A stretch of 32,465 nucleotides of DNA from Chloroflexaceae bacterium (GCA_034437495.1 DAOTUF010000260.1:1-32465), one strand, 5' to 3'. Positions 17,364 through 32,465 are shown, counted from the first letter of the stretch. Notes: generated by a model from the letters alone, not told the origin. Program-made: numbers and translations.

Positions 17364-17400
17364 GAGTTATCCTCGTGATTTCTGAGAACATCTCCCGCAA

Positions 17401-17429
17401 AGTATACCATGCCCCTTCCCCTCCGGCAA
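17401..17429 (-). promoter_or_regulatory. Sigma-70-like promoter for gcvPA-gcvPB-rSAM
   Basis: On the minus strand: TTGCCG (17429-17424), 17-nt spacer ending in TGG, TATACT (17406-17401). The leader is only about 30 nt. Confidence 0.5.
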
Positions 17430-17469
17430 CAACGACGGTCAGAGCAGCCCGGTCGGGCGGGTGGCCTGG

Positions 17470-17497
17470 TTGCTCCCGCTGCTTCCTGTGGTATACT
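17470..17497 (+). promoter_or_regulatory. Sigma-70-like promoter for the dual-DNA-binding regulator
   Basis: TTGCTC (17470-17475), 16-nt spacer ending in TGG, TATACT (17492-17497). Confidence 0.45.
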
Positions 17498-17545
17498 TCT
17501 CGGGTGGGAACGGTGGTATGGATGCTGAATGGCATGGGAGAACAT

Positions 17546-18436
17546 ATGAGCGGGACAAAGAAGCTCTGGGAACAGATTTACGAGGAAACCATCTGGGATG
17601 AGGAGGCGGCGAAGTCCATTGCCTACCGGATGGAGTGGCAGGGGATGTCGCGCTCCGAAGCGGAGGCCCGTCAGCGCGAGGAAACCCGTCACTACCAGCA
17701 GCAGAGCGTGTATACTCTCATGGTGGGCGACCTCTGCGTTGATTATGAGCATGGCGAGGTGTGGTTCGATGGGCAGCGGGTCGATGTCAACCCCGTCGAA
17801 TACCGCCTGCTCCTCTGCCTGACCGCCATCCCTGGCCGCCTCATGCCCTACAGCGACATCCTGCGCCAGATGCATATCCGGATCTGGGAGCATGGGTCCC
17901 AGGAGTTTTTGCAGTCCCACGTCCGAAACCTGTACCAGAAGATAGACCCGCGCTACCTGGTTGAATTGTATGGTGTTGGCTACCTGGTCATCGACCCGGA
18001 GGAGGTGGATCGGTATGGCGGGGGGAACCGCCGCCCATTCCGCACGGCCATCATCAGCAATCATATTATCCACATTGCCGATGATGGTTCGCTGGTGGTC
18101 CAGGAGATGGGCAGTATGGACTCCACCGTCCTCCCCCCCCAGGTCTCGGTGGCGCTCCGAATGTTCTTCCATCGCCAGGAATCGGTCGTGCCGCTCGCCC
18201 CCAACAAAGACCCGCTGACCAATGATGAGATGGCGATTATGCCGCTGGCGGCCTGTGGTTATTCTGATGACGTTATCGCCAGCCACCTGGGAATGGTCGC
18301 CGCAGAGGTGCGGCACCATATCAATCGGATTCTGGTCAAGTTCCAGCTTGAAAATCAAGTGCAGCTGGCGATGCATATGGTTCGGCGGGGGCTTATCCGC
18401 ACGGAAGATGGCATCATTGCGCGGGGGGTAGTCTGA
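17546..18436 (+). CDS. Transcriptional regulator with an OmpR/PhoB-type winged-helix domain and a C-terminal LuxR/GerE-type HTH, without a receiver domain
   Basis: LMVGDLCVDYEHGEVWFDGQRVDVNPVEYRLLLCL...VRNLYQKI...YGVGYLV resembles Trans_reg_C. LTNDEMAIMPLAACGYSDDVIASHLGMVAAEVRHHINRILVKFQLENQVQLAMHMVRRGLI resembles GerE. The start is ambiguous: ATG 17546 follows a GGGAG SD, and ATG 17522 is an alternative. Confidence 0.7.
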   Translation: MSGTKKLWEQIYEETIWDEEAAKSIAYRMEWQGMSRSEAEARQREETRHYQQQSVYTLMVGDLCVDYEHGEVWFDGQRVDVNPVEYRLLLCLTAIPGRLMPYSDILRQMHIRIWEHGSQEFLQSHVRNLYQKIDPRYLVELYGVGYLVIDPEEVDRYGGGNRRPFRTAIISNHIIHIADDGSLVVQEMGSMDSTVLPPQVSVALRMFFHRQESVVPLAPNKDPLTNDEMAIMPLAACGYSDDVIASHLGMVAAEVRHHINRILVKFQLENQVQLAMHMVRRGLIRTEDGIIARGVV

Positions 18437-18499
18437 GGCGGCGGAGGGGGACAGCTCCCTGCGCCCCTCCGCAGGACCTCCGAGCGTGGTAGGCAGCGT

Positions 18500-19210
18500 A
18501 TGGAAGATGCAATCCATCACTTCGTGCTCGTATTGAAGCGGGAGGAAGTTTCGGTCATCATCGGGCTGGCCTGTGTCACGATGGTGCTGTGGGATGTTCC
18601 CCTGGTGCGCCAGGTGCTTTATCCGTTTCGCCTCTTCAATACGTTCGTCCACGAACTGGGGCATGGCATTGCGGCAACCGCGACGGGGGGGACGTTCAAG
18701 TACTTGATTGTCAACCCGAATATGTCCGGGGAGGCGTGGACAGCCGGCGGCAACCGCTTCATTATCGCCAGTTCGGGGTATCTGGGAAGTATGCTCTTCG
18801 GGGGAGCACTCATTGTCGTCACTTCCTGGGAGAACGTGACCGCCAGCGGGGTGTTTTTCTGCCTCGGGGTCGGGTTTGGCATCCTGTGTGTGCTGTTTGT
18901 GCGCAACTGCTTCGGGTTGCTGATGTCCATTGTCCTCACGGTGGGGTTGCTGGCCGCCGGGGTCTACCTTGAGGCTCCGTGGGACGGCTACCTGCTGCTC
19001 TTTCTGGCGGTGCAGGCCACCCTCAATGCCCTCAACAGTCTGGTGCATTTGCTGAAGGTGACGGCCCGGAAGGAGAAGAGCATCAACGATGCCGCGGCGA
19101 TGGCTGAGATATTCCCCCTCCCGGCCATGGTCTGGGCGATGGTGTGGGGGGTGCTGTCGATCGGCATTCTGGTGGGGGCGCTGAACATTGCCTACCCGCC
19201 AGCGGGATGA
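18500..19210 (+). CDS. M50B-like integral membrane metallopeptidase (HExxH)
   Basis: FVHELGHGIAATATGG is followed by several TM helices (SGYLGSMLFGGALIVV, VFFCLGVGFGILCVLFV and others). 236 aa. Confidence 0.7.
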   Translation: MEDAIHHFVLVLKREEVSVIIGLACVTMVLWDVPLVRQVLYPFRLFNTFVHELGHGIAATATGGTFKYLIVNPNMSGEAWTAGGNRFIIASSGYLGSMLFGGALIVVTSWENVTASGVFFCLGVGFGILCVLFVRNCFGLLMSIVLTVGLLAAGVYLEAPWDGYLLLFLAVQATLNALNSLVHLLKVTARKEKSINDAAAMAEIFPLPAMVWAMVWGVLSIGILVGALNIAYPPAG

Positions 19211-19228
19211 GGAGACGAGGGGAAGCGT

Positions 19229-20179
19229 ATGCCAGAGACGTTTGCTATCCAGACCCGGAACCTGACCAGACACTTCAAACAGCGCGTGGCGGTTGAGGAT
19301 GTTTCGCTGGAGGTGCGGCCCGGGGAGGTGTTCGGGTTTCTGGGGCCGAACGGCTCCGGGAAGACCACCACCATTGCCATGCTCCTCGGGCTGATTGCCC
19401 CGACGCGTGGGCAGGCTATGGTGCTCGGGCACGATGTGCAGCGGGCGACCGCTGACGCTCTCCGCGGGGTTGGCGCAATGATTGAGCAGCCGGCCTTCTA
19501 CCCCTACCTGAGCGGACGCAACAATCTGCGGGTGCTCGCCCGGGTGGGAAACGTCCCCGAATCGCGCATTGACGCGGTGCTCAAGCTGGTGGACCTGGAG
19601 GAGCGGGCGAAGGACCGCTTCAAAACCTATTCGCAGGGGATGAAACAGCGGCTCGCGATTGCAGCGGCGCTCCTGCCCGACCCGCAGGTCATCATCCTCG
19701 ATGAGCCGACCAACGGCCTCGACCCGTCGGGGATGGTCGAAATCCGCGACCTGATTGCCACCCTGTCGGGGCAGGGGCACACGATTTTCCTGAGCAGCCA
19801 TCTGCTGTTTGAGGTGGAGCAGGTATGCCACCGGGTAGCCATCCTGAAGGAGGGCCGCGTGCTGGCGCAGGGGACGGTGGACGAACTGCTCCAGCGGGGC
19901 CGTGGCATCCAGGTGCGCGTGGCCAGTGACCCGGCGCGGGCCGTGGAGGTGCTGCGGTCGGTGGACTGGGTAGGCGATATCCAGCAGCAGGACCACGTGC
20001 TAATAGTTGCTGCCCCTGGTTCCCGCACGCCAGAAATCAACGCCCTGCTTGCCCGCCATGACATTCCCGTGGCTGAAATCCGCGCCCACGAGGGGAGCCT
20101 GGAGCAGTTCTTTCTCGAAATCACGCACGACGAAAAGGGTGCTCCGCAGGGCGGAGGGGGAGCGGCAGGCGGGGGGTGA
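19229..20179 (+). CDS. ABC transporter ATP-binding protein (ABC-2/CcmA-like exporter type)
   Basis: Walker A GPNGSGKTT, signature YSQGMKQRL, Walker B IILDEPTNGLD, H-loop SSHLL. 18 nt after the M50B gene. Confidence 0.92.
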   Translation: MPETFAIQTRNLTRHFKQRVAVEDVSLEVRPGEVFGFLGPNGSGKTTTIAMLLGLIAPTRGQAMVLGHDVQRATADALRGVGAMIEQPAFYPYLSGRNNLRVLARVGNVPESRIDAVLKLVDLEERAKDRFKTYSQGMKQRLAIAAALLPDPQVIILDEPTNGLDPSGMVEIRDLIATLSGQGHTIFLSSHLLFEVEQVCHRVAILKEGRVLAQGTVDELLQRGRGIQVRVASDPARAVEVLRSVDWVGDIQQQDHVLIVAAPGSRTPEINALLARHDIPVAEIRAHEGSLEQFFLEITHDEKGAPQGGGGAAGGG

Positions 20180-21834: not shown

Positions 21835-24090
21835 TCACCTGCCGAGCGAGAAGGCATACAGCCGTCCGCTCATTGTCGCAACGTAGAGCATCTTCCCGTC
21901 CGCTCCGAGCACCGGCGGTGCGTGGATGGCTCCGCGCAGGTGTGCCTGCCAGAGCAGGTGTCCACGACCGTCCAGCGCGAGCAACCGTTCATCCTCCGTG
22001 CCAAGGTACAGGATGCCCGCCTCGCTCTGCACCGGCGGACCCCGCAGGTCGCTGCCGGTCGGAACCTGCCACGGCTGTGTTCCCAGGGCGTGGAGCACCC
22101 CGTCACGCGCAGCAACGAACACAGCACGGGGATCATCCTGCCCGATGAGGGGGGCAGCTTCGATGGGTACGCCAACCCGGTCGGTTGTCACCACGCTGCC
22201 TCGGCGGTCGAGCACCACCACATCCCCGTCCACGGTCGCCACCACCACGCCTCCGCTGCGGTCGGGGGTGAGGGGGGGCCATAGCTCCTGCTCCAGTTCG
22301 GTATTCCACGGCACCTCCCCGTCGGTCCCCATCTTGAGGATGCTTCCCGCGGCGGTGCCCACCAGGAGCAACCCGTCGCTGCTCAGCGCGAGGGGCGTGG
22401 TCTCGCTCTCCAGGTCGCGGGTCCAGACCTCCTGCCCCTCCTCGTCAAACGCCACCACCTCACCAACGCTGGTCACTCCGTAGAGGTGCCCATCGTGGAA
22501 CACCGGACTCCCGCGCAGGGGGCTGCGGAGGCGTACGGTCCAGGCCACGCGCCCATCGGGGTGCAGCGCGGTGAGCAGGCTGCTGCTGTCGCCCAGGTAG
22601 AGGGTGCCGTCGGGCGCACGGGCAGGGGTGCTGCTGACCATCCCCGAGGCGTGGTAGGCCCACTGGAGCGTGCCAGCAGGGGTGATGGCGTAGAGCGTGC
22701 CGGGGTCGCTGATGGCGTAGATGGTGCCATCGGGAGCCAGCAGCGGCGGCGAACGCATGGGTCCCCGCCCGGGGAAGGTCCAGGCATAGGCCGCGGCTGC
22801 CCCCGCAGAGAGGAGGGGGGGACGCTCGATATCTTGCAGGGCATTGACGTTCATTTGCAGGGTCAGGTAGGCCGGGCGGATGCTCCAGTCGGGGTTGAGG
22901 ATGCTGAAACCGGCCTTCTCATCGCCAGGTTCCGTGATGACGCTGAAGTTGAGGTTCCAGACGAACACCCCCCCCACCCAGGGGTAGGACTGACGGACCA
23001 TCCACAGCGTGTCTACCAGGTAGCGCGACTGCTCCTCCTCGCTCACGGGTTCCGGGGCCCCCTCGGCGGGGGAGGTGTTCCACCCCACCTCGGTTATCCA
23101 GACCGGGCGCGTGTCTCCGTGCTGGCGCATCAGGTCATGCACCCGTTCGATATGGCGGAAGTAGTGGTGCGACTGCTGCGGAGCATCGGCGGGCCACCGC
23201 GCTCCGGGGGGGTGGGGACCGGCGCCGGGGTGGACGGCAACCACATCGGCGACGTGCAGGAATGCCCCCTCGTCAAGCGCATACAGCGCCTCGTAGAAGG
23301 GCAGGTCGTCGGTGGCAACGGCGGGGTCGGGCTGGTTCGTTGCCGCGAGGGGAGCAGCCAGCACCAGGGCACACGGGTCGGCCTCTTTGATGGCGGGGTA
23401 GGCGGCCTGGAGCGTGGCAAGGTACGTGGCCGGGTCGCCGGGCGCTCCCCCGCTCTCGTGGGACAGGTTTGGCTCATTCCAGATTTCATAGGCCGAGACG
23501 CGACCGCGGTAGCGGGTGGCAAGCTGACGAAGAAAGGTGGCCAGGGTGGTGGGGTCGTCGGGGAGGCCGCTGTGCCCGGTGCTGGTGGCCCACGCGGGCG
23601 AACGCACCACGCTGAGCATAATGCGCAGGTCGTGGGAGCGGGCCGCGCTCACCACCTGGTCAAGCGGCGTCCACACCAGTTGTCCGCGTTTGCCCTCCAG
23701 GTCGCGCCAGTGTATCTGCTGGCGCACCCACCCGAACCCCGCAATGCCCGTCAGCGTCAGCACCCGCTCGCTATCGGTTCCGAGCAGGAAGGCGTTGATG
23801 CCGTAGTGCAGGCGGGGAAGCGAGGGGGATGACCTTGCTTCTGCCGCTGACGCTGCTTCCGCGCTCTCCCCTGCCTCCCGCACCTGCTCGGCCAGACACT
23901 CGCCGGTGAGGGGAGCAAACAGGGGCACGGGGGTGCCGGTTCTCCAGGGCGATACGGTTGGCTCCTGCCCGACCGGAGGGGTGGGGGGTGGGGTGGTTGG
24001 TGGCGGCGCGGGGTGCAAACACCCGGCGAGGAGCAGGGTGAGCAGCAAGAGCACGATGGGTCCGGGGCGCATGGGCGTGGGCATGGGCAT
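21835..24090 (-). CDS. Lipoprotein: clan GH-A (GH5/GH39-like) glycoside hydrolase domain fused to a PQQ-like (BamB-type) beta-propeller
   Basis: Lipobox LLLAGC after MPMPTPMRPGPIVLLLLTL. YEIWNEPN (acid/base Glu) and WITEVGW (nucleophile Glu). The C-terminal half has repeated DGT(I/L)Y...G.L.A....G...W units. GGAAGGAGGAA SD. Confidence 0.8.
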   Translation of the reverse strand: MPMPTPMRPGPIVLLLLTLLLAGCLHPAPPPTTPPPTPPVGQEPTVSPWRTGTPVPLFAPLTGECLAEQVREAGESAEAASAAEARSSPSLPRLHYGINAFLLGTDSERVLTLTGIAGFGWVRQQIHWRDLEGKRGQLVWTPLDQVVSAARSHDLRIMLSVVRSPAWATSTGHSGLPDDPTTLATFLRQLATRYRGRVSAYEIWNEPNLSHESGGAPGDPATYLATLQAAYPAIKEADPCALVLAAPLAATNQPDPAVATDDLPFYEALYALDEGAFLHVADVVAVHPGAGPHPPGARWPADAPQQSHHYFRHIERVHDLMRQHGDTRPVWITEVGWNTSPAEGAPEPVSEEEQSRYLVDTLWMVRQSYPWVGGVFVWNLNFSVITEPGDEKAGFSILNPDWSIRPAYLTLQMNVNALQDIERPPLLSAGAAAAYAWTFPGRGPMRSPPLLAPDGTIYAISDPGTLYAITPAGTLQWAYHASGMVSSTPARAPDGTLYLGDSSSLLTALHPDGRVAWTVRLRSPLRGSPVFHDGHLYGVTSVGEVVAFDEEGQEVWTRDLESETTPLALSSDGLLLVGTAAGSILKMGTDGEVPWNTELEQELWPPLTPDRSGGVVVATVDGDVVVLDRRGSVVTTDRVGVPIEAAPLIGQDDPRAVFVAARDGVLHALGTQPWQVPTGSDLRGPPVQSEAGILYLGTEDERLLALDGRGHLLWQAHLRGAIHAPPVLGADGKMLYVATMSGRLYAFSLGR

Positions 24091-24140
24091 GGGCGTGGTT
24101 CCTCCTTCCTCTTGAGCGCATGGTATGGTATTGATAGTTT

Positions 24141-24149
24141 ATGATACCA
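24141..24149 (-). promoter_or_regulatory. Candidate extended -10 (TGGTATCAT on minus strand) for the GH/propeller lipoprotein gene
   Basis: Reverse complement of 24141-24149 is TGGTATCAT, about 50 nt upstream of ATG 24090. Confidence 0.4.
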
Positions 24150-24328
24150 GCGATATCGGATATGGGCGAATCCGGCTCTTCCCCCTCGTCCTCCTCGTCC
24201 TCCTCTTTCCCCCCCTTCCCGTCGGGCCGCAGCGGGCGCACGCTGGAGCGTTCCGGGGTATAATGGGGAGCGCCATTCCTGAGAGGGGGTGGTTCTGTGG
24301 TCGCGTTGCCATCGGAGGGGGTACCCTG

Positions 24329-25249
24329 ATGCGAAACCTGATACCTGTCAACCTGATACACGCCGAGTGGCTGAAACTCTCCCGCCGACCCATGGCGTGG
24401 GTGCTGCTCATCATCTTTCTTATCTTCCTGCTGTTCTCGCTCTCCGTCCCCTTCCTGGTGCTGGCCCTGCACGACGGGGTCTTCACCGGGGGCGAAACTC
24501 GCGCTACCTTTCCCATCATCACCGAGGCGCAGATGGAGCAATTCCGTCTCCAGCTTCGTTTCCCCGGTCTCTTCGGGGAAATCCTGGGTCAGGTGAACGG
24601 GGTGGGCGGCATCCTGGCCGTTCTGCTGGCGGCGGGGGCGATGGGAGGCGAGTATGATTGGGGGACGCTGCGGGTGCAGCTTGCCCGCTTCCCCGACCGC
24701 GGGCGCTACCTGCTGGCCAAGGTCGTCGCCCTGCTGCTCATTCTGCTGGCTGGTATGGCCATTGTGCTGGTGGTGGGGTCGCTGTTCGGCCTGTTCTTGA
24801 GCCTGGTGCTCGGCAGCGTGGGGCACGTCGGCCTTTCTGACGTGGCACTCCTGCCGATTGGAATGGTGCGGGCGCTCTTCATTATGCTGCCCTACCTGAT
24901 GTTTGCCATTGCGACATCCACGCTCGGGCGTTCAACGATGGCAGGCATTGCGGGGGGCATTCTGCTCATCGTGGTGGATGCGGGCGCGGGAGCACCGGCG
25001 CTGCTGGCCGCGGTGGACAACCCCGTAGTCAACCTGCTCTACAACCTGCTTATCCAGCAGAATGTCAATGCGCTGGTGGTGGTCAATCGCAGCGCCTACG
25101 GGCTTGACCCGGCGGTGATGACCAACCTCGACCCGTCGCAGCTTCCGCACCCCTTCCAGGCAGCGGTGGTGGTGGCGTGCTACAGTCTGCTCTTCCTGGG
25201 CTACGCCTGGTTCCTGCTGACGCGGCGCGATGTGCCGGGGAGAGCGTAG
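24329..25249 (+). CDS. ABC-2-type transporter permease (6 TM)
   Basis: MRNLIPVNLIHAEWLKLSRRPMAWVLLIIFLIFLL is a typical ABC-2 permease N-terminus, followed by multiple TM helices. A GGAGGGGG SD lies 8 nt upstream and TATAAT lies at 24259-24264. Track start 24125 is an extension. Confidence 0.75.
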   Translation: MRNLIPVNLIHAEWLKLSRRPMAWVLLIIFLIFLLFSLSVPFLVLALHDGVFTGGETRATFPIITEAQMEQFRLQLRFPGLFGEILGQVNGVGGILAVLLAAGAMGGEYDWGTLRVQLARFPDRGRYLLAKVVALLLILLAGMAIVLVVGSLFGLFLSLVLGSVGHVGLSDVALLPIGMVRALFIMLPYLMFAIATSTLGRSTMAGIAGGILLIVVDAGAGAPALLAAVDNPVVNLLYNLLIQQNVNALVVVNRSAYGLDPAVMTNLDPSQLPHPFQAAVVVACYSLLFLGYAWFLLTRRDVPGRA

Positions 25250-25312
25250 GCGGGGGAACGACGGGAGGAAGGTTTCATCGGCTTTTGCCAGGTCTTCTGT
25301 TCATCTGTTCAT

Positions 25313-25351
25313 CCAGGGAATTCGAAACCCGTAGGATTCCTGGTATTTTTG
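25313..25351 (+). terminator. Intrinsic terminator after the permease gene
   Basis: CCAGGGAAT (25313-25321) pairs with ATTCCTGG (25336-25343) with one bulge, followed by TATTTTTG. Confidence 0.6.
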
Positions 25352-25360
25352 TGGTATAGT
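25352..25360 (+). promoter_or_regulatory. Candidate extended -10 (TGGTATAGT) for the giant LRR gene
   Basis: TGGTATAGT sits in the lower-GC 320-nt intergenic region. A second candidate, TACAAT, lies at 25384-25389. Either implies a 5' UTR of about 180-200 nt. Confidence 0.35.
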
Positions 25361-25569
25361 TATCTTAAAAAGTGGTGTCGGGTTACAATCAAGGTCGTCT
25401 GGACTTCCTGACACAAACGGTGCCCCTGCTCCTGGTTGACCAGCATCCTTACCGCTGAGAAGCTTCGCTGGTGGTCGAACGTCCTTTTTCAGGAATCATA
25501 TACTCCATCGTGCATCATGTTCTCTAACTATCCATGGAAATCGGGTGGGTTGGAAAGAGAGGGTCCCCC

Positions 25570-28500
25570 ATGAAACAAGTCGTCTGCTTGCATACGCCGT
25601 GCGCTGCACGTCGTTCCCTGGTCTTTCTCCTGTTCCTCCTCCTCGCCTTTTCCTTCCATCCCGAATCAGTTCCCACCACGCAGGCCGCCGCCTTCACCGG
25701 GTGTGACTACCCGTCGCTCCAGAACGAGATCCCGCAGGCTGAATGTGAAGCGCTGGTCGCCCTCTACGACCAGACGGGGGGGCCGGAGTGGACGAACCGC
25801 ACCGGGTGGCGGACAACCAGCACCCTGTGTGACTGGTATGGAGTGACGTGCAGCGGGGGACAGGTGGTCGCCATCTCGCTCTCGGACAACCAGTTGAGCG
25901 GGACACTGCCCGACCTCCGCCCCCTCACCAACCTCACCTACCTCTCCCTCTCGGATAACCAGTTGAGCGGAACCATTTCCAACCTCGCCACCCTCACCAG
26001 GCTCACCACGCTCTACCTGTCGAACAACCAGTTGAGCGGGACGCTGCCCGACCTCAGTCCCCTCACCAACCTCGCCTACCTCTCGCTCTCGAACAACCAG
26101 TTCAGTGGCTCCATTCCCGACCTCAGTTCCCTGACCAACCTGGCGACCCTCTACCTGTCGAACAACCAGTTGAGCGGGACGCTGCCCGACCTCAGTCCCC
26201 TGACCAGACTGACGACCTGTTCCCTCTCGAACAACCAGTTGAGCGGGACGCTGCCCGACCTCCGCCCCCTCACCAACCTCACGTCGCTCTCGCTGTCGAA
26301 CAACCAGTTGAGTGGAGCAATCCCCGATCTGAGCACCCTGACCAGGTTGAGCACCCTGTCGCTGGCGGATAACCAGTTGAGCGGGACGCTGCCCGACCTC
26401 AGCCCCCTCACCAACCTCACCTATCTCCGCCTGTCGAACAACCAGTTGAGCGGGACACTGCCCGACCTCAGCTCCCTCACCAATCTCACCTATCTCTACC
26501 TGTCGAACAACCAGTTGAGCGGGACACTGCCCGACCTCCGCCCCCTCACCAACCTGCGGGATCTGCGGCTCGAAAACAACCAGTTGAGTGGGACGCTGCC
26601 CGACCTCCGCCCCCTCACCAACCTCACCACGCTCTACCTGTCGAACAACCAGTTCAGCGGCCCCATTCCAGAGCTGACCACGCTCGTCAGCCTGGCCCAC
26701 CTCCGCCTTGCCAACAACCAGTTGAGCGGACCCATGCCCGATATGACCACCCTGACCAGTCTGGTCACACTCGTGCTTGATAACAACCAGTTGAGCGGCC
26801 CCGTGCCCGATATGAGCGCCCTGACCGGCCTGACCCACCTCTACCTTGCCAACAACCAGTTGACCAGTATTCCTCCTGGACTGGGCAGCCTCCCCTCCCT
26901 CACCATTCTCTCGCTCTCGAACAACCAGTTGACCAGTATCCCCCCCGAACTGGGCAACCTTTCCTCGCTCACGACGCTCTCGCTTGCCAACAACCAGCTG
27001 ACCACCATCCCCCCCGAATTGATGCAGCTGTCGTCACTCCAGGTCCTCGTCCTGTCGAACAACCAGTTGAGCGGGACGCTGCCTGACTTCAGCCCCCTCA
27101 CCAGCCTGACCCATCTCTACCTGTCGAACAACCAGTTGAGCGGGACGCTGCCCGACTTCAGCCCCCTCACCAGCCTGACCCATCTCTACCTGTCGAACAA
27201 CCAGTTGAGCGGGACGCTGCCCGACTTCAGCCCCCTCACCAGCCTGACCGACCTGGACCTTTCTGTCAACCACCTGGATGGCCCCGTGGTTGCATCGAGC
27301 CTGCCCATCAGCCTGACCCTCCTGAACCTCTCGCACAACCACCTGAGTAGCTCCATTCCAGACGCCAGCCTGCCCATCAGCCTGACCCTCCTGAACCTCT
27401 CGCACAACCATCTGAGCGGTCCCATTCCGGACCTGAGCATGCTGGCCAGCCTCACAGACCTCATCCTCACTGGCAACCAGTTGAGCGGCGACATCCCGCC
27501 CGCTCTGAGCACGCTGACCAACCTGGTCAACCTTGACCTGGGCTATAACCAGTTGACGGCCTCCGACCCGGCCCTGCTCGCGTTGCTCGAATCGCCAGGC
27601 AACAGAGACCCCGACTGGAGCAGGACCCAGACGATTCCTCCCACCGACATCGCCGCCGAAGCGCTTACCGACACCATGGTGCGCGTTAACTGGTCTCCCA
27701 TCCCCTATACGGGCAATGGCGGCTTCTACCAGGTCTGGTATGCCGTGCAGCCGGCAGGAGCCTATACCCCTGCCAAGAGCACGACCGTGGACAAGAACAC
27801 CCCGGGCTATATCGTCACGGGGTTGCAGCCAGAGACGACCTACTCCTTCCTGGTCAGAACCTTCACCCCCGCCCACACCCGGAACCAGAACGCGCTCACC
27901 AGCACCCGGAGCCTGGAGGCCGCGGCCACCACCTTCCCCCCCTCCCCAGAAATCAGCGTCCTGGACTGGAACGGCGCAGTGGTTGCCGACGAGAGCGTGA
28001 CCCCGCTCGACCTCGGGATAACGTCCATAGGGGTCCCCATGACCAGGACCTTCACGGTGCGCAACCTCGGAACGACCGCCCTCGAACTGACCAACCCCAT
28101 CACCATCCCATCCGGCTTCACGCTCAACCGTTCGCTTCACGGTGCTACTGTCACGGCGGGTGGTTCCATCACCTTCGACCTCACTTTTGAGGCCACCCAC
28201 CCGGGGATTTTTAGCGGTGAGCTTTCGTTCGGCACCAGCGATAGCAACGAAAACCCCTTCAACTTCCCTATCCGGGCCAGGAGTATCGCCCCGGACATCC
28301 AGGTGGCGAACTGGAACAGCGTGCCCGTGACCAGCAGCACCACAACCCTCATCCAGGTAGGGCAGACGGCTGTGGGCAAAACCTTGAGCCGAAGATTCAA
28401 GGTGAGCAACAGCGGGGAAGCAGACCTCATCCTGACCGACCTGACCGTCCCGCCCCGCTACACCGTCGCCCGAACCTTCGCCATCACCACGGTGCGGCCC

Positions 28501-31020
28501 GGCTCATCCACCACCTTCGACCTCGCTCTCACCACCGCCAGCGCCGGGGTCTTCAGTGGCACGGTGGCGCTCGCCTCCAACGACCCGGATGAAAACCCCT
28601 TTGTCTTCACCGTCACGGGCACCGTGAGCGGAACCGTCCCCGACCCCTTCGACTGTCCTGCTGCGCTGGCCGTCACCGAAGGGATGGCCCACCTGAAGGC
28701 CGACACGGCCCGCACGACCTACCAGGTTGACGGGAGCGGTGTCACAGTGGGGGTAATTGCCAATTCCTACGATGCTGCGACCCTGGGCACGGATGGCAAG
28801 CTGATTGCCACTCGCGCCATCTCCGATGTACACTCCGGCGACCTGCCCGGCGACGGCAACCCGTGCGGATATACGACCCCCGTCAGGGTCATCCGCGACG
28901 GTCCATCGGGGCACCCCGGCCCGGGTGGGGACGAAGGACGGGCCGTCATGCAGATTATCCACGACATTGCCCCCGGGGCCAGGCTCCTGTTTGCCAGCGG
29001 CGTGGGCGAAACCGCCACGGTGTATGACCTGGCCGAGGCTATCCGCCTCCTGCACCAGGCGGGAGCGGATATCATTGTTGACACGATGTACTATGGCGTC
29101 CAACCCTTCTACCAGGATGGGCCGGTGGCGGTTGCCGTCGCTGAGGTGGTGGAAGCGGGGGGCATCTCCTTCACCACCGCGGGCAATTTCAACAAATACA
29201 CCCGCATTGATGATACGCCGCGAGGGTTGTCATATGAAACGCTGGCCTACCGACCCACGGCGTGCCCTGCGGGTCTCACCCGCCCGGATGGAACCCCCGT
29301 GACCCTGGAAGGGGATTGCCACAACTTTCTTGCCTCGACCGGTCCCCCCGACGCGACCGCCCGCTATACCGCCGCGCCCGCTTCGCAGGTCCGGTTTCAC
29401 CTTCAGTGGGGCGAACCCTGGTATGGAGTGACCACCGACCTGGACCTCTACGCCATTGACGAATCGGGGACCGTTTTGGCGACCAGCACCAGCGACAACC
29501 TCTCCACCCGCCTGCCCTACGAGTCCCTCACCATCACGACGACCACGACCACGACCACCCTTGCCGCCGATACCGCCGATGCCGAAGCAAGTCAGCCGTT
29601 CTTGATCGTGGTCAATCGGGTCAACCGCGCCGACCGCTCGGATTCGGAGCGCCAGGGGACGCCGCAGTTCAAGTACATCGTTGACGGGATGGGCATAGCA
29701 CAGGCGGAATATTATGCGCCCGATGACCCCGACATCTCCCCGGATATCTTCGGGCCGACGATCTTCGGGCACCGCGGAGCCAATGCGGTCATCAGCGTGA
29801 GCGCCGTACCCTATACCACCATCTCCCACGTCGAAGATTCGTCCTCGCGTGGGCTTCCGTGGTACTACTTCGGCCCCATCAATGGGGATGAGACCCCCGC
29901 AGACCGCCTGGATATCCCCGAATCTCGCCAGAAGCCAGATATGGCGGCGACCGATGGAAATGCCACGACGTTCTACGGACGGCCTCCCCACAGCCCGGAA
30001 AACCCGGATGCGGTCTGGCGCTTTGATGGAACATCGGCTGCGGCAGCGCACGCTGCGGGGGTGGCTGCCCTCGTGTTGCAGGAAGCGCGGAAAAACCACA
30101 TCCCCATCGGTCAGCAAACCATGGAACTGCTCCTTGAGACGACCGCCAGCCGGATTGAAGGCAGTCCGACCGAGGCCACCGGCGCCGGGCTAATCCAGGC
30201 CGATGCCGCTGTGCGGACGATGACCATTCAACCCTTCGAGGTGCTGGTGCCAGGTGGGGACGAGCCGCTGCAAGCCGGCCCCCATACGACCCCCCAGGCA
30301 GCGACCATCCATATCAGCAAGCCCAACTTCGGGTTGCTCCAGCCGGACCACTTTACGGTTCAGGTGGGCAGCAGCGAGGCGGAGGTATTGTCCGTGGTCG
30401 AACTCCCCGAGCGCTACATCCTCGAAGTTGCCCCCCCCGTCCAGAAGAAAAACGACCTCTACGACCTGAGCATCACCGTCGTCAACCGGTCATCGCCGGT
30501 GGTGCGGAAAGGGGGAGTGCTCTATGGCGAGACTGTGGCCAGAATACGTCCTACCACCTTGCATACCTACCTTGATAAGCAGGCTTACCGTCGCGGCGAC
30601 CCCGTCCGCGTGGCTGCGGTGCTGTTCAATGACTACCCCATCACCAGCGCCAGAGTCACTGCCGTGATGGAGCGGCAGTACCAGGATGCGGGGGGCAACG
30701 AGGAGGTGCCGACGCGAGGATTCCCCGTTCAGGTGCGGCTGTATGACGATGGGTTTCACGGCGATGGGATGGCCGGGGATGGGGTCTATGCGGGGACAGT
30801 GACGAGCAACTATACCCGCTCGCACGGGGATTACCGTATCGATGTCTTTGCGAGCGATTTTTCCCTTCCCAACGGCGGCGAGGAAACCAGACTGCACACC
30901 CGCCACACCGTTCGGGTCTCCGAAAGCGGCGACCAACCCGGGGTCAATGTCGGCGTGGCGGTGGAGGAGGAGGAAGAGCCACAGGGTCAGGTCTTCCTGC
31001 CGCTGTTGACCGCAAAGTGA
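25570..31020 (+). CDS. Giant secreted mosaic protein (1816 aa): signal peptide, LRRNT-like Cys cap, about 25 LRRs, FN3, two choice-of-anchor-D/ASH-like modules, a subtilase-like (clan SB) peptidase domain, and C-terminal beta-sandwich modules
   Basis: Signal-like LVFLLFLLLAFSF...TQAAA. Cap CEALVALYDQTGGPEWTN..GW....LCDWYGVTC. LRR consensus LxLSNNQLSGTLPDLSPLTNLTx. FN3-like VRVNWSPIPY...YSFLVRT. Modules ending SNDPDENPFVFTVTG. GTSAAAAHAAGVAALVL plus TAGN plus HDIAPGA. DDGFHGDGMAGDGVYAG. ATG 25570 is chosen over track start 25534. Confidence 0.85.
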   Translation: MKQVVCLHTPCAARRSLVFLLFLLLAFSFHPESVPTTQAAAFTGCDYPSLQNEIPQAECEALVALYDQTGGPEWTNRTGWRTTSTLCDWYGVTCSGGQVVAISLSDNQLSGTLPDLRPLTNLTYLSLSDNQLSGTISNLATLTRLTTLYLSNNQLSGTLPDLSPLTNLAYLSLSNNQFSGSIPDLSSLTNLATLYLSNNQLSGTLPDLSPLTRLTTCSLSNNQLSGTLPDLRPLTNLTSLSLSNNQLSGAIPDLSTLTRLSTLSLADNQLSGTLPDLSPLTNLTYLRLSNNQLSGTLPDLSSLTNLTYLYLSNNQLSGTLPDLRPLTNLRDLRLENNQLSGTLPDLRPLTNLTTLYLSNNQFSGPIPELTTLVSLAHLRLANNQLSGPMPDMTTLTSLVTLVLDNNQLSGPVPDMSALTGLTHLYLANNQLTSIPPGLGSLPSLTILSLSNNQLTSIPPELGNLSSLTTLSLANNQLTTIPPELMQLSSLQVLVLSNNQLSGTLPDFSPLTSLTHLYLSNNQLSGTLPDFSPLTSLTHLYLSNNQLSGTLPDFSPLTSLTDLDLSVNHLDGPVVASSLPISLTLLNLSHNHLSSSIPDASLPISLTLLNLSHNHLSGPIPDLSMLASLTDLILTGNQLSGDIPPALSTLTNLVNLDLGYNQLTASDPALLALLESPGNRDPDWSRTQTIPPTDIAAEALTDTMVRVNWSPIPYTGNGGFYQVWYAVQPAGAYTPAKSTTVDKNTPGYIVTGLQPETTYSFLVRTFTPAHTRNQNALTSTRSLEAAATTFPPSPEISVLDWNGAVVADESVTPLDLGITSIGVPMTRTFTVRNLGTTALELTNPITIPSGFTLNRSLHGATVTAGGSITFDLTFEATHPGIFSGELSFGTSDSNENPFNFPIRARSIAPDIQVANWNSVPVTSSTTTLIQVGQTAVGKTLSRRFKVSNSGEADLILTDLTVPPRYTVARTFAITTVRPGSSTTFDLALTTASAGVFSGTVALASNDPDENPFVFTVTGTVSGTVPDPFDCPAALAVTEGMAHLKADTARTTYQVDGSGVTVGVIANSYDAATLGTDGKLIATRAISDVHSGDLPGDGNPCGYTTPVRVIRDGPSGHPGPGGDEGRAVMQIIHDIAPGARLLFASGVGETATVYDLAEAIRLLHQAGADIIVDTMYYGVQPFYQDGPVAVAVAEVVEAGGISFTTAGNFNKYTRIDDTPRGLSYETLAYRPTACPAGLTRPDGTPVTLEGDCHNFLASTGPPDATARYTAAPASQVRFHLQWGEPWYGVTTDLDLYAIDESGTVLATSTSDNLSTRLPYESLTITTTTTTTTLAADTADAEASQPFLIVVNRVNRADRSDSERQGTPQFKYIVDGMGIAQAEYYAPDDPDISPDIFGPTIFGHRGANAVISVSAVPYTTISHVEDSSSRGLPWYYFGPINGDETPADRLDIPESRQKPDMAATDGNATTFYGRPPHSPENPDAVWRFDGTSAAAAHAAGVAALVLQEARKNHIPIGQQTMELLLETTASRIEGSPTEATGAGLIQADAAVRTMTIQPFEVLVPGGDEPLQAGPHTTPQAATIHISKPNFGLLQPDHFTVQVGSSEAEVLSVVELPERYILEVAPPVQKKNDLYDLSITVVNRSSPVVRKGGVLYGETVARIRPTTLHTYLDKQAYRRGDPVRVAAVLFNDYPITSARVTAVMERQYQDAGGNEEVPTRGFPVQVRLYDDGFHGDGMAGDGVYAGTVTSNYTRSHGDYRIDVFASDFSLPNGGEETRLHTRHTVRVSESGDQPGVNVGVAVEEEEEPQGQVFLPLLTAK
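25873..27597 (+). repeat. Coding tandem array of about 25 x 69-bp (23-codon) LRR units
   Basis: Strict 69-nt periodicity. The core ctgtcgaacaaccagttgagcgggac(g/a)ctgcccgacctc recurs more than 10 times. Confidence 0.9.
27052..27249 (+). repeat. Three near-identical consecutive 69-bp units
   Basis: Units start at 27052, 27121 and 27190. The only difference seen is T27084 versus C27153 (synonymous Pro codon), until divergence near 27250. Confidence 0.9.
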
Positions 31021-31079
31021 CCCCCTGCGTGTGCGAAACTGTCTTGCCCGTCCTGTCCGTATCGGCGTGCAGGTGCGGT

Positions 31080-31112
31080 GCTCCCTCTCCCGTACGATGA
31101 GAGAGAGGGAGC
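31080..31112. terminator. Bidirectional terminator-like hairpin between the giant gene and thiD
   Basis: GCTCCCTCTC (31080-31089) pairs with GAGAGGGAGC (31103-31112), a 10-bp stem with a 13-nt loop. No strong U tract. Confidence 0.45.
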
Positions 31113-31120
31113 CGGGATGG

Positions 31121-31915
31121 TCAGACCACGACCGCATGGTTGAGCGGGCCGTGCCCGTGCCCGACGTGCAGCGCATCTGCCGCCCGAATTGCCGCCGTGA
31201 CATAATCTTTAGCGACCTGCACGGCCCTGCCTATGTCCTCCCCCTTCGCGAGTTCGGCAGCGATGGCCGACGCAAAGGTGCAGCCAGTGCCGTGGGTGTT
31301 CGGGGTGGCGGCCCGCGAAGCACGAAGCTCGGTAGAGTTCTGCCCGTCGTAGAGCACGTCTACCGCGTCTTCGGATGCGGGCAGGTGCCCCCCCTTCACC
31401 ACCACGTAGCGCACCCCCATCTGGTGGATAGCCACAGCCGCGGCGCGGGCATCGGCCAGGGTGCGGATCTCCTGCCCCGTGAGCACCTGCGCCTCGTGGT
31501 GGTTGGGCGTGACGACCGTCGCCAGCGGCACCAGGTCGGCAATCAGGGCGTCACGCGCCTGGGGGTGGAGCAGCGGGTCCCCCCCCTTGGCCACCATCAC
31601 CGGGTCAAGCACGAGCCGCGCCACCCCATATTGCCGGGCCTTCTGCGCCACCACCCGAATAATCTCGGCATTGGCGAGCATCCCCAGTTTCCAGGTGTCT
31701 ACCTGAATATCGCTCATCACGGAGTCAATCTGCCGGGCCACAAAGTCGGCGGGAACTTCAAACACCCCCTGCACGCCGGTGGTGTTCTGGGCCGTCAGCG
31801 CGGTCAGCACGCTCATGCCGTAGACCCCGCGGGCCGCAAAGGTCTTCAAATCGGCCTGGATGCCCGCCCCCCCGCCGGGGTCGGAGCCTGCAATGGTGAG
31901 CACATTTGGAATCAT
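31121..31915 (-). CDS. thiD: Bifunctional hydroxymethylpyrimidine/phosphomethylpyrimidine kinase
   Basis: VLTIAGSDPGGGAGIQADLKT, LTAQNT, VLDPVMVAKGG, THGTGCTF. Confidence 0.93.
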   Translation of the reverse strand: MIPNVLTIAGSDPGGGAGIQADLKTFAARGVYGMSVLTALTAQNTTGVQGVFEVPADFVARQIDSVMSDIQVDTWKLGMLANAEIIRVVAQKARQYGVARLVLDPVMVAKGGDPLLHPQARDALIADLVPLATVVTPNHHEAQVLTGQEIRTLADARAAAVAIHQMGVRYVVVKGGHLPASEDAVDVLYDGQNSTELRASRAATPNTHGTGCTFASAIAAELAKGEDIGRAVQVAKDYVTAAIRAADALHVGHGHGPLNHAVVV

Positions 31916-31939
31916 ACGCCTCTGTCCTCCGGGTAGGTA

Positions 31940-32465
31940 CTACCTGTTCGCACGAATAATCTCAAGCGACAGTTCGGCGGCCCGCTGCCCCGACAGGAAC
32001 ATCCCCCCGAAGATAGCCCCCATTCGCGGGGTGGCCGCCACGTTGCTCGCTGCCATCCCGGTCACGATGAGGCCGGGGAAGACCTCCAGCGTGCTGGAGA
32101 CCAGGTCGGCTTCGCCCCGTGCGGCCCACATCGAGCGCTCGCCCGGCACGCCGCCGTCGGGGGAGCGCAGGCGAGCGCCGGGGATTTTGGTAATCAGGGT
32201 GCGGCAGATGTGGGCGTCGTGCCCGGTCGCGTCAATGACGACCTTTGCTTCGACGGCCAGCGGGTCCACGTGCAACCCGGCTTGCACCGTTGCGTCCCAG
32301 TTGAGCACGACACCGGCTACCCGCTGGTCGTGGTAGACCATCACATCTTCGGCTATCATGCCAATCCAGATACGCGCCCCGGCATCCAGGGCCGCGGCGG
32401 TACACTTCGTGACAGCCTCCACCGAATCGGCTACCAGGTAGCCTTCGCGCCAGGGGTGCAGGCGA
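31940..32465 (-). CDS. thi4: Thiazole synthase of the Thi4 family, C-terminal part (N-terminus off window); His-type (non-Cys) active-site variant
   Basis: VAGVVLNWDATVQAGLHVDPLAVEAKVVIDATGHDA...FPGLIVTGMAA...PRMGAIFGGMFLSGQ. The reading frame stays open to the window edge upstream of the track's GTG 32422. Confidence 0.85.
   Translation of the reverse strand, partial: RLHPWREGYLVADSVEAVTKCTAAALDAGARIWIGMIAEDVMVYHDQRVAGVVLNWDATVQAGLHVDPLAVEAKVVIDATGHDAHICRTLITKIPGARLRSPDGGVPGERSMWAARGEADLVSSTLEVFPGLIVTGMAASNVAATPRMGAIFGGMFLSGQRAAELSLEIIRANR

Follow-up and report, generated by a model that had tools for sequence, protein, structure and literature searches.

Lactocepin PrtP and the C5a peptidase ScpA are large surface-anchored subtilases in which Fn3-like or Ig-like modules lie beside the catalytic domain. 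Both have an N-terminal propeptide and a catalytic domain with a PA insert, an LPXTG anchor, and the canonical triad, and neither contains leucine-rich repeats (LRRs). Subtilisin-like catalytic cores as a whole were divided in a 2024 survey into only two families: the Ser-His-Asp subtilases and the Ser-Glu-Asp sedolisins (PMC11593635). In the sedolisins (MEROPS S53; e.g., kumamolisin and TPP1), a glutamate replaces the catalytic histidine to give a Ser-Glu-Asp triad (PMC11593635, PMC2635056). The Csp germination subtilases have a subtilisin fold with a jelly-roll inside the catalytic domain (PMC3567191). The pseudoproteases of this group are reported to be inactive although they have the subtilisin fold, and they offer a precedent for sensors built on that fold without catalysis (PMC7200643); for CspC and CspA of Clostridioides difficile, a non-catalytic signalling role has been described (PMC7200643, PMC12880746).

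The window analyzed here is a 32,465-nucleotide stretch of DNA from a Chloroflexaceae bacterium (GCA_034437495.1 DAOTUF010000260.1:1-32465). It encodes an 1816-aa protein in which a long LRR cassette is followed by a subtilisin-fold domain. The domain shuffle is new, whereas the kind of system to which it belongs is already known.

Gene and domain architecture

The open reading frame (25534/25570..31020, plus strand) encodes 1816 amino acids counted from the ATG at 25570. The sequence GAGAGGG lies 6-12 nt upstream of this codon, and the 1828-aa version from the ATG at 25534 has no comparable ribosome-binding site; the ATG at 25570 is the preferred start. The features of the gene and its downstream flank are as follows, with the evidence for each in parentheses.

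25570..25692, plus strand: signal-peptide-like N-terminus, aa 1-41, MKQVVCLHTPCAARRSLVFLLFLLLAFSFHPESVPTTQAAA (read from the sequence)
25732..25857, plus strand: Cys-flanked, LRRNT_2-like LRR N-terminal cap, aa 55-96, ECEALVALYDQTGGPEWTN...CDWYGVTC (Pfam PF08263)
25873..27597, plus strand: LRR solenoid of 24 x 23 residues, aa 102-653, with a C-terminal cap to about aa 676 (TRF, register table, Pfam)
27631..27909, plus strand: fibronectin type III (FN3) module, aa ~688-780 (PF00041, collinear with P0236)
27952..28629, plus strand: two choice-of-anchor D (ASH/HYDIN-type Ig-like) modules, aa ~795-905 and 906-1020 (NF012200)
28639..29199, plus strand: subtilisin-fold domain, N-terminal part, aa 1024-1210 (AF2, Foldseek, hhalign)
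29200..29724, plus strand: beta jelly-roll insert, aa ~1211-1385 (AF2, family profile, Foldseek)
29530..29559, plus strand: (ACG/ACC)n microsatellite encoding T-I-T8, in a loop of the insert (sequence)
29725..30234, plus strand: subtilisin-fold domain, C-terminal part, aa 1386-1555 (PF00082, PDB matches, hhalign)
30235..30954, plus strand: C-terminal region, predicted all-beta, aa 1556-1795 (NF041940, relatives)
30955..31020, plus strand: E5 run and C-terminal tail QVFLPLLTAK, then the stop codon (tail compared across relatives)
31080..31112, no strand: 10-bp perfect inverted repeat between convergent genes, without a T-run

The six-part architecture proposed in the initial annotation is correct, as judged from the Pfam and NCBIfam profile matches and the LRR register table. 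The flanking signals proposed with it, a promoter region belonging to the gene and hairpin terminators on both sides, found no support. Consensus scans detected neither a sigma-70-like promoter nor an intrinsic terminator on either side of the reading frame, there are no inverted repeats of 8 nt or more upstream, and an Rfam scan of the 320-nt leader returned no element. The sole hairpin found is the inverted repeat at 31080-31112, a possible terminator that was not among the calls of the consensus scan. As no promoter, terminator, or Rfam signal was found, the proposed monocistronic status and 200-nt 5' UTR are still guesses. The gene has no operon partner, and its neighbors are housekeeping genes. 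An extended -10-like string, TGGTATAGT, occurs near 25352-25360.

The window comes from a metagenome-type contig, and a short-read assembly over 69-nt repeats might produce a chimera or a wrong repeat number. Three neighboring LRR units (aa 493-561) are 93-97% identical at the DNA level, so that the copy number could be off by 1-2, and the metagenome-assembled genome (MAG) that contains the ortholog has a 1-nt frameshift in a C-run. Against such an artefact, most repeat units are just 65-90% identical, the frame is intact for 5.4 kb, and dN/dS relative to the ortholog is 0.1-0.3 in every segment. An artefact is very improbable because an independent JGI contig of 9080 bp spans the whole gene with a single mismatch (99.989% identical), and because the ortholog, in an independent Chloroflexaceae MAG, is 78% identical and collinear from the LRRs to the C-terminal tail, with the junctions between LRRs, FN3, choice-of-anchor D modules, peptidase, and C-terminus all recurring. 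The peptidase core has the lowest dN/dS (0.11-0.13, vs 0.15-0.30 for the other domains), values that indicate purifying selection on the protein.

The LRR cassette

At the N-terminus, basic residues precede the hydrophobic stretch LVFLLFLLLAF, and the putative signal cleavage site lies near residue 41. The tetrapeptide FTGC (aa 42-45) was considered as a lipoprotein signal and rejected; its Cys lies about 15 residues past the hydrophobic core. The cap that follows scores 22.3 bits against LRRNT_2 (PF08263) when the N-terminus is scanned in isolation, above the cut-off of 20.7, but only 17.7 bits, below it, in the full-length scan. It shares 47% identity with a cap that lies internally in the Beggiatoa protein P0236. 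The solenoid had been described as about 25 uninterrupted repeats of 23 residues; the repeat length holds exactly and in perfect register, with a DNA period of 69 nt, and the count is 24. In the LRR region, TRF reports a period of 69 with 19.9 copies and 74% matches, and Pfam matches include LRR_4, LRR_8, and LRR_1. Downstream, fn3 (PF00041) matches aa 690-767 at 30.4 bits (cut-off 25), and choice-of-anchor D (NF012200) matches in two stretches at 92.5 bits (cut-off 45), with PF22544, PF07610, and PF15780 also matching in this region.

The initial annotation called the LRRs plant-type, and a plant-derived or plant-like receptor ectodomain, acquired horizontally or acting as a signal-transducing receptor-like sensor, would account for the LRRNT_2-like cap and for an LSGxLP motif that recalls plant-specific LRRs. 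Plant-specific LRRs are, however, 24 residues long (LxxLxxLxLxxNxLSGxIPxxLGx), one residue more than the repeats here. The best NCBIfam match of the LRRs is the Leptospira LRR protein LIC_11051, with internalin-like proteins and Xop effectors also matching; bacterial homologs number in the thousands, many of them with LRRNT_2 (about 35 of the 120 best bacterial matches), and a Beggiatoa protein carries a collinear cassette. Nor does the protein have a transmembrane segment or a signalling output domain: the LRRs lead into FN3, choice-of-anchor D modules, and the peptidase, where a plant receptor would have a juxtamembrane cap and a transmembrane helix, no hydrophobic helix occurs after residue 30, and neither Pfam nor NCBIfam gives a kinase match. 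The plant label is thus misleading, and a plant origin or plant-like role is highly unlikely.

The subtilisin-fold domain

The second half of the protein contains a clan SB domain of about 535 aa, including a jelly-roll insert. The peptidase-like fold suggested earlier is borne out by an AF2 model with a pLDDT of 91.8 and a pTM of 0.93, and by Foldseek matches to CspB, CspC, and CspA (E 1e-12 to 1e-15) and to subtilisins (probability 1.00, TMt 0.75-0.81). Peptidase_S8 (PF00082) scores 36.9 bits against a cut-off of 21.8, with only profile positions 171-285, the Ser half, aligned. The C-terminal part of the domain has PDB matches to AprV2 and BprV and contains H1401, SSRG, KPDMAATD, and GTS1489AAAAH, the last with the nucleophile Ser. 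There is no propeptide: the domain begins 4 residues after the second choice-of-anchor D module.

The insert, about 175 aa, sits between the oxyanion Asn (N1206) and the catalytic Ser (S1489). It is all-beta in the AF2 model (model residues 187-356), the family profile matches the beta-jelly-roll region of Tk-SP (3afg), and the same insert is present in the metagenomic protein P0187. The poly-Thr microsatellite previously reported at about 29530-29560 is present as ACG/ACC repeats that encode TIT8. Its loop is modeled with low confidence (pLDDT 62-71 over AF2 model residues 301-320); the poly-Thr is absent from the ortholog: P0001 has an 11-residue gap at this site.

Beyond the subtilisin-fold domain, choice-of-anchor X (NF041940) matches aa 1723-1760, covering DDGFHGDGMAGDGVYAG, at 31.6 bits (cut-off 25). 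When the C-terminal 261 aa served as query in a word-based search, the ortholog was the only homolog returned; part of this region is matched by the closer relatives P0251-P0253, and its AF2 model, built from a two-sequence alignment, has a pLDDT of 32. The E5 run noted in the initial annotation is present. The tail follows the pattern hydrophobic, [F/Y]LP, hydrophobic, xx, [K/R...], stop, which the ortholog, L002, and two unrelated LRR giants also show. A (Y/F)LP tail occurs in 12 of the 144 representatives of the peptidase family, behind different domains, and has the look of a portable signal for sorting or anchoring; an NCBIfam scan of five such C-terminal tails returned no sorting-signal model.

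Catalytic residues

An hhalign comparison with subtilisin BPN' worked once the 175-aa insert had been removed, with the His region still misaligned, and the equivalence to His64 was settled with P0187, a canonical homolog that bears the insert. The family profile and the S8 domain of P0187, which is canonical, align with a probability of 99.6%, an alignment that pairs NHGT with DEGR, IIDAG with VIANS, AGNE with AGNF, and GTSQASPH with GTSAAAAH (P0187 motif first in each pair). The residues D1121-E1122-G1123 accordingly stand at the His64 site, and a helix begins at Glu1122 in the AF2 model. D1171-T1172 occupies the Asn123/Leu124 site, and A1064/N1065 the canonical Asp32 site, with Ala1064 in the canonical position (Ser in the family) and Asn1065 next to it (Asp in the family). 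Asn1206 of TAGN1206 is the oxyanion residue Asn155, and the Ser of GTS1489AAAAH aligns to S221. Two histidines were set aside as candidates for the general base: H1401 is matched by a Glu in the canonical homolog and falls in the S1-pocket region of subtilisin, and H1131 lies 9 residues from Glu1122 along the same helix.

The peptidase family as a whole has Glu in place of the subtilase His64 and Ser-Asp in place of Asp32. Among family representatives with a residue at the position, Ser1489 is kept in 142 of 142, Asn1206 in 141 of 144, and Glu1122 in 140 of 141, and all three are retained in the 1816-aa protein. This protein and its ortholog differ from the family by S1064A (0 of 142 others), D1065N (Asn in 5 others), D1172T (0 of 143 others), and E1178Q (1 other), at positions where the consensus is near-invariant and which map to the acid/base zone of subtilisin (PMC11593635). 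With a family that lacks His64 and Asp32 and with these further changes at 1064, 1065, 1172, and 1178, the proteolytic competence of the 1816-aa protein is uncertain. The earlier suggestion of a target-directed protease, made without noticing that the canonical His and Asp are absent, is therefore not a safe one.

Possible functions of the fusion

The reading that we favor, with about as much doubt as belief, is a targeted subtilase-like protein, in which an LRR binding cassette is fused to a subtilisin-fold domain that acts as a tethered hydrolase. It arose by the fusion of two pre-existing modules. The N-terminal 1020 residues (cap, 24 LRRs, FN3, and, as spacers, two Ig-like choice-of-anchor D modules) form a putative binding cassette, of a kind known from giant surface proteins of filamentous bacteria, that occupies the place of the propeptide; the C-terminal 790 residues hold the subtilisin-fold domain with its jelly-roll insert, the beta modules, and a short hydrophobic tail. 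The protein is probably secreted and retained at the cell surface of a filamentous bacterium, which its nearest relatives (a Chloroflexaceae MAG, an Oscillochloris MAG, and Ca. Viridilinea) suggest to be of Chloroflexales type. There, the LRR solenoid may bind a protein or surface ligand and so keep the subtilase-like domain beside its substrate, as a target-directed hydrolase in which Ser1489 would act as the nucleophile, Asn1206 would form the oxyanion hole, and Glu1122 would stand in for histidine as the general base. Several observations weigh against a hydrolase. The catalytic apparatus is non-canonical throughout a family whose members are all uncharacterised, this protein and its ortholog further alter near-invariant residues at 1064, 1065, 1172, and 1178, and the propeptide, which is usually needed for subtilase folding and implies autoprocessing, is absent. 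The lack of an operon partner counts against this reading as well, and retention of the Ser, Asn, and Glu across just two orthologs is weak evidence for catalysis.

These same points bear on a plausible, if on balance doubtful, alternative, in which catalysis has been lost and the subtilisin-fold domain provides a second binding surface beside the LRR solenoid, so that the protein is a pseudoprotease with a purely adhesive or recognition role, as an adhesin or a sensor. The lineage-specific residues A1064, N1065, T1172, and Q1178 (consensus S, D, D, and E) cluster in the acid/base zone, as would fit such a loss, and a protein that has lost its propeptide has no need of autoprocessing. The best structural matches include CspC (6mw4) and CspC-CspA (9pr8), and strong purifying selection on the domain fits conserved binding equally well. 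Csp pseudoproteases have, however, lost triad residues, and the 1816-aa protein retains its nucleophile Ser and an unbroken GTS motif, along with the oxyanion Asn and Glu1122-Gly1123. Asn1065, moreover, is shared with 5 ordinary members of the family that keep a propeptide and presumably depend on self-processing.

A more tentative proposal, which we consider rather unlikely, concerns the family as a whole: it might add to S8 and S53 a third type of catalysis on the subtilisin fold, with Glu for His64, the acid shifted by one residue (Asp32 to Ser-Asp), and an S8-type Asn in the oxyanion hole. The LRR-fused protein would then be a derived member, with a targeting solenoid gained in exchange for the propeptide and a remodeled acid zone, and its (Y/F)LP tail would act in sorting or anchoring as a signal not described before.

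The fusion is a natural example of domain shuffling, in which an LRR-FN3-Ig cassette is set exactly at the usual site of the propeptide. It offers a useful test of whether folding in such enzymes is possible when the propeptide is missing, and of whether LRRs can guide a protease to its target. Its wider value lies in a widespread, unstudied subtilisin-fold clade with Glu for the catalytic His and an S8-type oxyanion hole, and the recurrence of the (Y/F)LP tail may point to a route by which Chloroflexota-like bacteria sort their secreted proteins.

Comparison with known systems

The initial annotation could place the combination of LRRs and a protease in no described family. For the domain order this stands: no characterised family with the same order was found in the literature or in an exhaustive protein search, in which LRRs upstream of this peptidase occurred in one ortholog only. 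Searches of the literature for LRRs with subtilases in bacteria yielded plant work only, and those for choice-of-anchor modules yielded no characterised relative among the matches listed. LRR-protease fusions of other kinds do exist. The LRR is paired with M4, M23, trypsin-like, or reprolysin-like domains in other matches, and the metagenomic proteins P0187, P0193, and P0228 combine an S8 domain with LRRs in one polypeptide.

These three proteins resemble the 1816-aa protein in joining a secreted subtilase and a long LRR array, and the S8 domains of P0187 and P0193 have the same jelly-roll insert (hhalign 99.6%). Unlike it, they have the opposite order (signal, propeptide, S8, LRRs), retain the propeptide, and have canonical Asp-His-Ser motifs (IIDAG, NHGT, GTSQASPH). 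A close likeness to the N-terminal half is P0236 of Beggiatoa sp. PS ('VCBS'), in which cap, LRRs, C-cap, FN3, and two choice-of-anchor D modules are collinear with those of the 1816-aa protein at 41% identity over 538 aa; the two share the C-cap pattern YNQLTA.DP.L...PDW..TQT.PPT. The giant LRR surface proteins of filamentous and gliding bacteria also include P0165, a choice-of-anchor D protein of Desulfonema magnum. P0236 and P0165, themselves uncharacterised, differ in that Peptidase_S8 (PF00082) is not listed for them and the NCBIfam scan gives no S8 peptidase; FG-GAP/VCBS-type and cadherin-type families appear as well in the Pfam list precomputed for them.

The peptidase half belongs with an uncharacterised clade of 'S8 family serine peptidase' proteins from Chloroflexota, Solirubrobacterales, and others (e.g., P0002 from Candidatus Viridilinea mediisalina, P0251-P0253, and P0043), which comprises at least 787 clusters at 50% identity. 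Identity is 40-48% over all 535 aa of the domain, jelly-roll insert included; the motifs DEGR...HD.APGA, AGN, FGH, SSRG, KPD.AATD, and GTSAAAPH are all shared, and the likeness extends in some relatives to part of the C-terminal region and to the (Y/F)LP tail. Members of this clade are mostly 530-1400 aa long, with accessory modules that are mostly C-terminal, and in nearly all of the best 150 representatives the domain starts 150-230 residues in, after an I9-like propeptide where aligned (about 100 aligned propeptide residues). In the 1816-aa protein, by contrast, a 1020-aa LRR-FN3-choice-of-anchor D cassette stands in place of the propeptide, and the consensus S-D, D-D, and E are changed to A-N, D-T, and Q. 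Accessory modules in the family include VWA, CBM96, PKD, SLH, Ig, and fn3; with so many binding modules, the pairing of a binding module with a peptidase is the family norm.

Among described enzymes, the protein shares with the subtilases (S8) the clan SB fold, a PF00082 score above the cut-off, the Ser of a GTS motif, and the oxyanion Asn of AGN. It lacks the His of the HGT motif at the N-terminus of helix C, the strand-1 Asp (D-T/S-G), and an I9-type propeptide, the last being usual in subtilases but not universal. In sedolisins, the Glu is followed four residues later in its helix by the acid Asp, and the oxyanion residue is the Asp of SGD. The 1816-aa protein is like them in having Glu1122 at the His64-equivalent position of the alignment and a short spacing from the base to the APGA strand; it is unlike them in having Val1126 (Met in the family) at the +4 position and the S8-type Asn1206 as the oxyanion residue, and in lacking a pro-kumamolisin activation domain. 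Membership in S53 was rejected, as hhalign gave no alignment to kumamolisin, for which an approximate query sequence was used. The best structural matches are the clostridial Csp proteins (CspB, 4i0w; the pseudoproteases CspC, 6mw4, and CspA, 9pr8), whose catalytic domain likewise has a jelly-roll insert. These spore proteins are intracellular and carry no LRR, FN3, or choice-of-anchor D modules, and CspB has a canonical triad and a prodomain that stays bound. Because sequence identity to them is just 10-12%, the 1816-aa protein is not filed as a member of the Csp family, and the likeness is structural only.

Gene structure and domain architecture

The gene is real, and the initial annotation read its architecture correctly. 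One single open reading frame runs along 25534..31020 (+); GAGAGGG precedes the ATG at 25570 and no such site precedes the ATG at 25534, so the 1816-aa product beginning at 25570 is more likely. Records exist of both forms, the 1828-aa one being named "Leucine-rich repeat (LRR) protein" in IMG. Pfam and NCBIfam scans bear out the proposed order of cap, LRRs, FN3, two choice-of-anchor D (CoA-D) modules and peptidase-like domain: matches of the repeat region to LRR_4, LRR_8 and LRR_1 are massive, fn3 scores 30.4 (cut-off 25), CoA-D 92.5 over two stretches (cut-off 45) and Peptidase_S8 36.9 (cut-off 21.8; only the Ser half of the Pfam model aligns), and the LRRNT_2-like cap reaches 22.3 bits when scanned alone (cut-off 20.7) and 17.7 bits within the whole protein. 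Choice-of-anchor X covers the DDGFHGDGMAGDGVYAG stretch (31.6, cut-off 25). The LRR array (aa 102-653) has the reported 23-residue length in every unit and no register break, with a count of 24 instead of about 25. The reported E5 run and poly-Thr tract (29530-29559, encoded by ACG/ACC repeats) are both present.

The promoter and bilateral terminators once proposed lack support: consensus scans called no promoter-like or terminator-like sites on either side of the gene, no inverted repeat lies upstream and one lies downstream, and an Rfam scan of the 320-nt leader found no element. The adjoining genes are housekeeping or unrelated, with no partner gene among them that points to a pathway.

Features near the gene
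21835-24090 (-), upstream: GH5 plus beta-propeller protein, 751 aa
31080-31112, downstream: 10-bp inverted repeat
Downstream, convergent: thiD-type kinase
Other neighbours: two glycine-cleavage P-protein subunits, a radical SAM protein, a regulator, an M50B peptidase and ABC transporter parts

The GH5 protein has a signal-like, proline-rich N-terminus with a possible lipobox (LLAGC), and its GH5 cellulase-type domain is followed by a PQQ/BamB-like beta-propeller, an unusual combination. The ORF at 17375-18433 (+), upstream of the M50B-like peptidase and an ABC ATPase, joins two differing DNA-binding output domains (Trans_reg_C and GerE/LuxR); the long ORF antisense to it (17207-19996, 929 aa) has no family match and is probably spurious.

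Integrity and conservation of the gene

An assembly artefact, raised in the initial annotation, is an unlikely source of the ORF, because an independent contig matches it, its repeat units diverge, a collinear ortholog exists and dN/dS is low. The 9080-bp JGI contig (L005, sample 3300012009) spans window 23376-32455 with one mismatch. Most pairs of 69-nt LRR units are just 65-90% identical; the sole exception is a group of three adjacent units (aa 493-561; 93-97%), so copy number is uncertain there alone. The ortholog, on a Chloroflexaceae MAG contig (L001, JAAUSY010000129) that begins inside the LRRs, is 78% identical in DNA and collinear through the last LRRs, FN3, both CoA-D modules and the peptidase up to the C-terminal tail. 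Values of dN/dS are 0.11-0.30 across all segments, with the minimum in the peptidase core (0.13, 0.11); both genes are under purifying selection.

In the ortholog, a 1-nt insertion in a C-run directly before the Ser motif (L001 2623-2640) yields two annotated pieces, P0001 ("partial") and P0250 ("S8 family serine peptidase"). Since conservation carries on past the shift, it more probably reflects a sequencing error than pseudogene formation; with one C deleted, the frame is continuous again and ends in QVFLPLVVAS.

Origin of the LRR cassette

The LRR half, earlier described as a plant-type ectodomain, is not one in any specific sense: its repeats have 23 residues, its matches are bacterial and it is collinear with a Beggiatoa protein. 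The best curated match of the LRR half is the Leptospira LRR protein LIC_11051. A full-length search returned 6939 bacterial proteins (E <= 1e-10), many of them 2000-3000-aa giants of filamentous or gliding bacteria (Beggiatoa, Parabeggiatoa, Desulfonema, Saprospiraceae, Aquimarina), and LRRNT_2 occurs in about 35 of the best 120. In P0236 of Beggiatoa sp. PS, the LRR end, C-cap, FN3 and both CoA-D modules are collinear with the window protein (41% identity over 538 aa, E 4e-98), and an internal cap is 47% identical to its N-terminal cap; NCBIfam models confirm both CoA-D and LRR for P0236 and for P0165 of Desulfonema magnum. To judge from this collinear block and the many bacterial LRR giants, the N-terminal 1020 aa is a pre-existing binding cassette.

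The initial annotation could place an LRR-protease polypeptide in no described family, yet such fusions exist. Among the best 120 LRR matches, Peptidase_S8 is found in P0187, P0193 and P0228, M4 thermolysin-type domains in P0154 and P0181, trypsin-type domains in P0234, reprolysin-like domains in P0173 and P0214, and M23 in P0153. The three S8 fusions have the opposite order, with the protease N-terminal and the LRRs after it; among the matches examined, LRRs lie upstream of the peptidase in the window protein and its ortholog only. Because LRR giants carry these other protease types too, such fusion seems a recurrent, unstudied theme in metagenomic giant bacterial proteins.

The subtilisin-fold domain and its insert

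A word search gives over 580 homologs of residues 1024-1560 (535 aa), and an exhaustive HMMER search gives 787 clusters at 50% identity (E <= 1e-30); where named, these are "S8 family serine peptidase" from Solirubrobacterales, Chloroflexota and others. An AlphaFold2 model from 121 sequences (pLDDT 91.8, pTM 0.93) and its Foldseek matches establish the predicted fold as clan SB, as first annotated. CspB (4i0w), CspC (6mw4) and CspC-CspA (9pr8), clostridial subtilases with a jelly-roll, rank first in the PDB (E 1e-15 to 1e-12), CspC and CspC-CspA being pseudoproteases; classical subtilisins follow (TM-scores 0.75-0.81, normalised to target).

The oxyanion Asn is separated from the catalytic Ser by an insert of some 175 aa, all-beta in the model, for which a profile search gave a match to the Tk-SP beta-jelly-roll. 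The poly-Thr tract, located in one of its low-confidence loops, is missing from the ortholog. A stretch within RADRSDSER (~29596-29640) is likewise an insertion relative to the ortholog, and both insertions fall in lower-confidence jelly-roll loops (pLDDT 62-81). As P0001 is gapped at both points, the microsatellite looks recent and lineage-specific.

The peptidase family is highly modular (VWA, CBM96, PKD, SLH, Ig, fn3). Nearly all of the best 150 representatives have 150-230 residues ahead of the domain, and in the aligned members these comprise a signal sequence and I9-like propeptide; the ortholog and P0258, which has an N-terminal CBM96, depart from this most clearly. Since the domain of the window protein starts four residues past the second CoA-D, the LRR cassette has replaced the propeptide.

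The catalytic site

Residue equivalences were taken from alignment of the family profile with P0187, a metagenomic relative that shares the insert and shows textbook S8 motifs (IIDAG, NHGT, AGNE, GTSQASPH); the match has 99.6% probability over 368 columns, and a BLAST alignment agrees.

Catalytic-site equivalences (canonical residue; window protein; family, with counts over 144 representatives, gaps left out of denominators)
Asp32; Ala1064; Ser, then Asp1065 (134/142; here Asn)
His64 (NHGT); Glu1122 (DEGR); Glu (140/141)
Asn123/Leu124; Asp1171/Thr1172; Asp-Asp (Asp1172, 142/143)
Asn155; Asn1206; Asn (141/144)
Ser221; Ser1489; Ser (142/142)

By this alignment and these counts, the whole clade has Glu at the subtilase His position, in a non-canonical site. 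Across the family (alignments A1 and A2; window 28639-30234; at least 787 clusters at 50% identity), DEG stands for HGT and Ser-Asp for Asp-Ser/Thr, and the Asn oxyanion residue and GTS nucleophile motif are kept. The modelled helix starts at Glu1122, as helix C of subtilisin does at His64. Sedolisins (S53) also have Glu at the His position, with an acid Asp four residues past it and an oxyanion Asp, both of which the clade lacks; the aligned arrangement is neither canonical S8 nor S53. No characterisation of this clade was found in the literature.

The acid/base zone of subtilisins comprises Leu31-Gly34, His64-Gly65 and Asn123-Ser125 (PMC11593635), and the window protein and its ortholog differ from the family at residues mapping to this zone. 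S1064A and D1172T are unique in the family; D1065N recurs in 5 other clusters (2 have G), E1178Q in one other and P1493A in three others. Ser1489, Asn1206, Glu1122-Gly1123, Asp1121, His1131-Asp1132 and His1401 are kept.

Family members without Asp1065 (P0003, P0008 and P0023) show joint changes at Glu1422, Arg1427 and Asp1462 as well, which suggests that the four positions are coupled in a network, for example through a metal site or a salt bridge. Position 1065 alone is altered among the four in the window protein.

Proposed function and relation to known systems

The tail at the extreme C-terminus recurs in several proteins:

Window 30988-31017: QVFLPLLTAK, then stop
L001 ~3627-3656: like tail in the ortholog
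L002 4917-4946: like tail in an Oscillochloris MAG homolog

Its pattern (hydrophobic, F/Y, L, P, hydrophobic, two variable positions, K/R/Q or similar, stop) occurs in 12 of 144 family representatives irrespective of the preceding domain (VWA, Ig or plain peptidase), and in two unrelated LRR giants (P0126, P0204). The tail has no matching NCBIfam model and is not long enough to form a transmembrane helix. It has the look of a putative sorting or anchoring signal not described before.

In the best-supported reading, the protein would be secreted and probably retained at the surface, where the LRR solenoid would bind a ligand and so position the subtilisin-fold domain, which may cleave that ligand through Ser1489, Glu1122 and Asn1206. 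Its chief competitor is a reading of the protein as an adhesin or sensor with a pseudoprotease domain, modelled on CspC and CspA, for which PMC7200643 and PMC12880746 provide the pseudoprotease precedent. The substitutions in the acid/base zone would suit such a protein, and the kept Ser, Glu and Asn would suit a peptidase; that the domain still hydrolyses something is close to an even bet.

Of most interest are the family-wide His-to-Glu exchange, with a predicted S8-type oxyanion hole, and the (Y/F)LP tail that recurs as a putative signal. The protein draws on two evolutionary sources, and the fusion is not a categorically new system; it newly combines the modular secreted subtilases with the LRR surface giants of bacteria, each a known kind.
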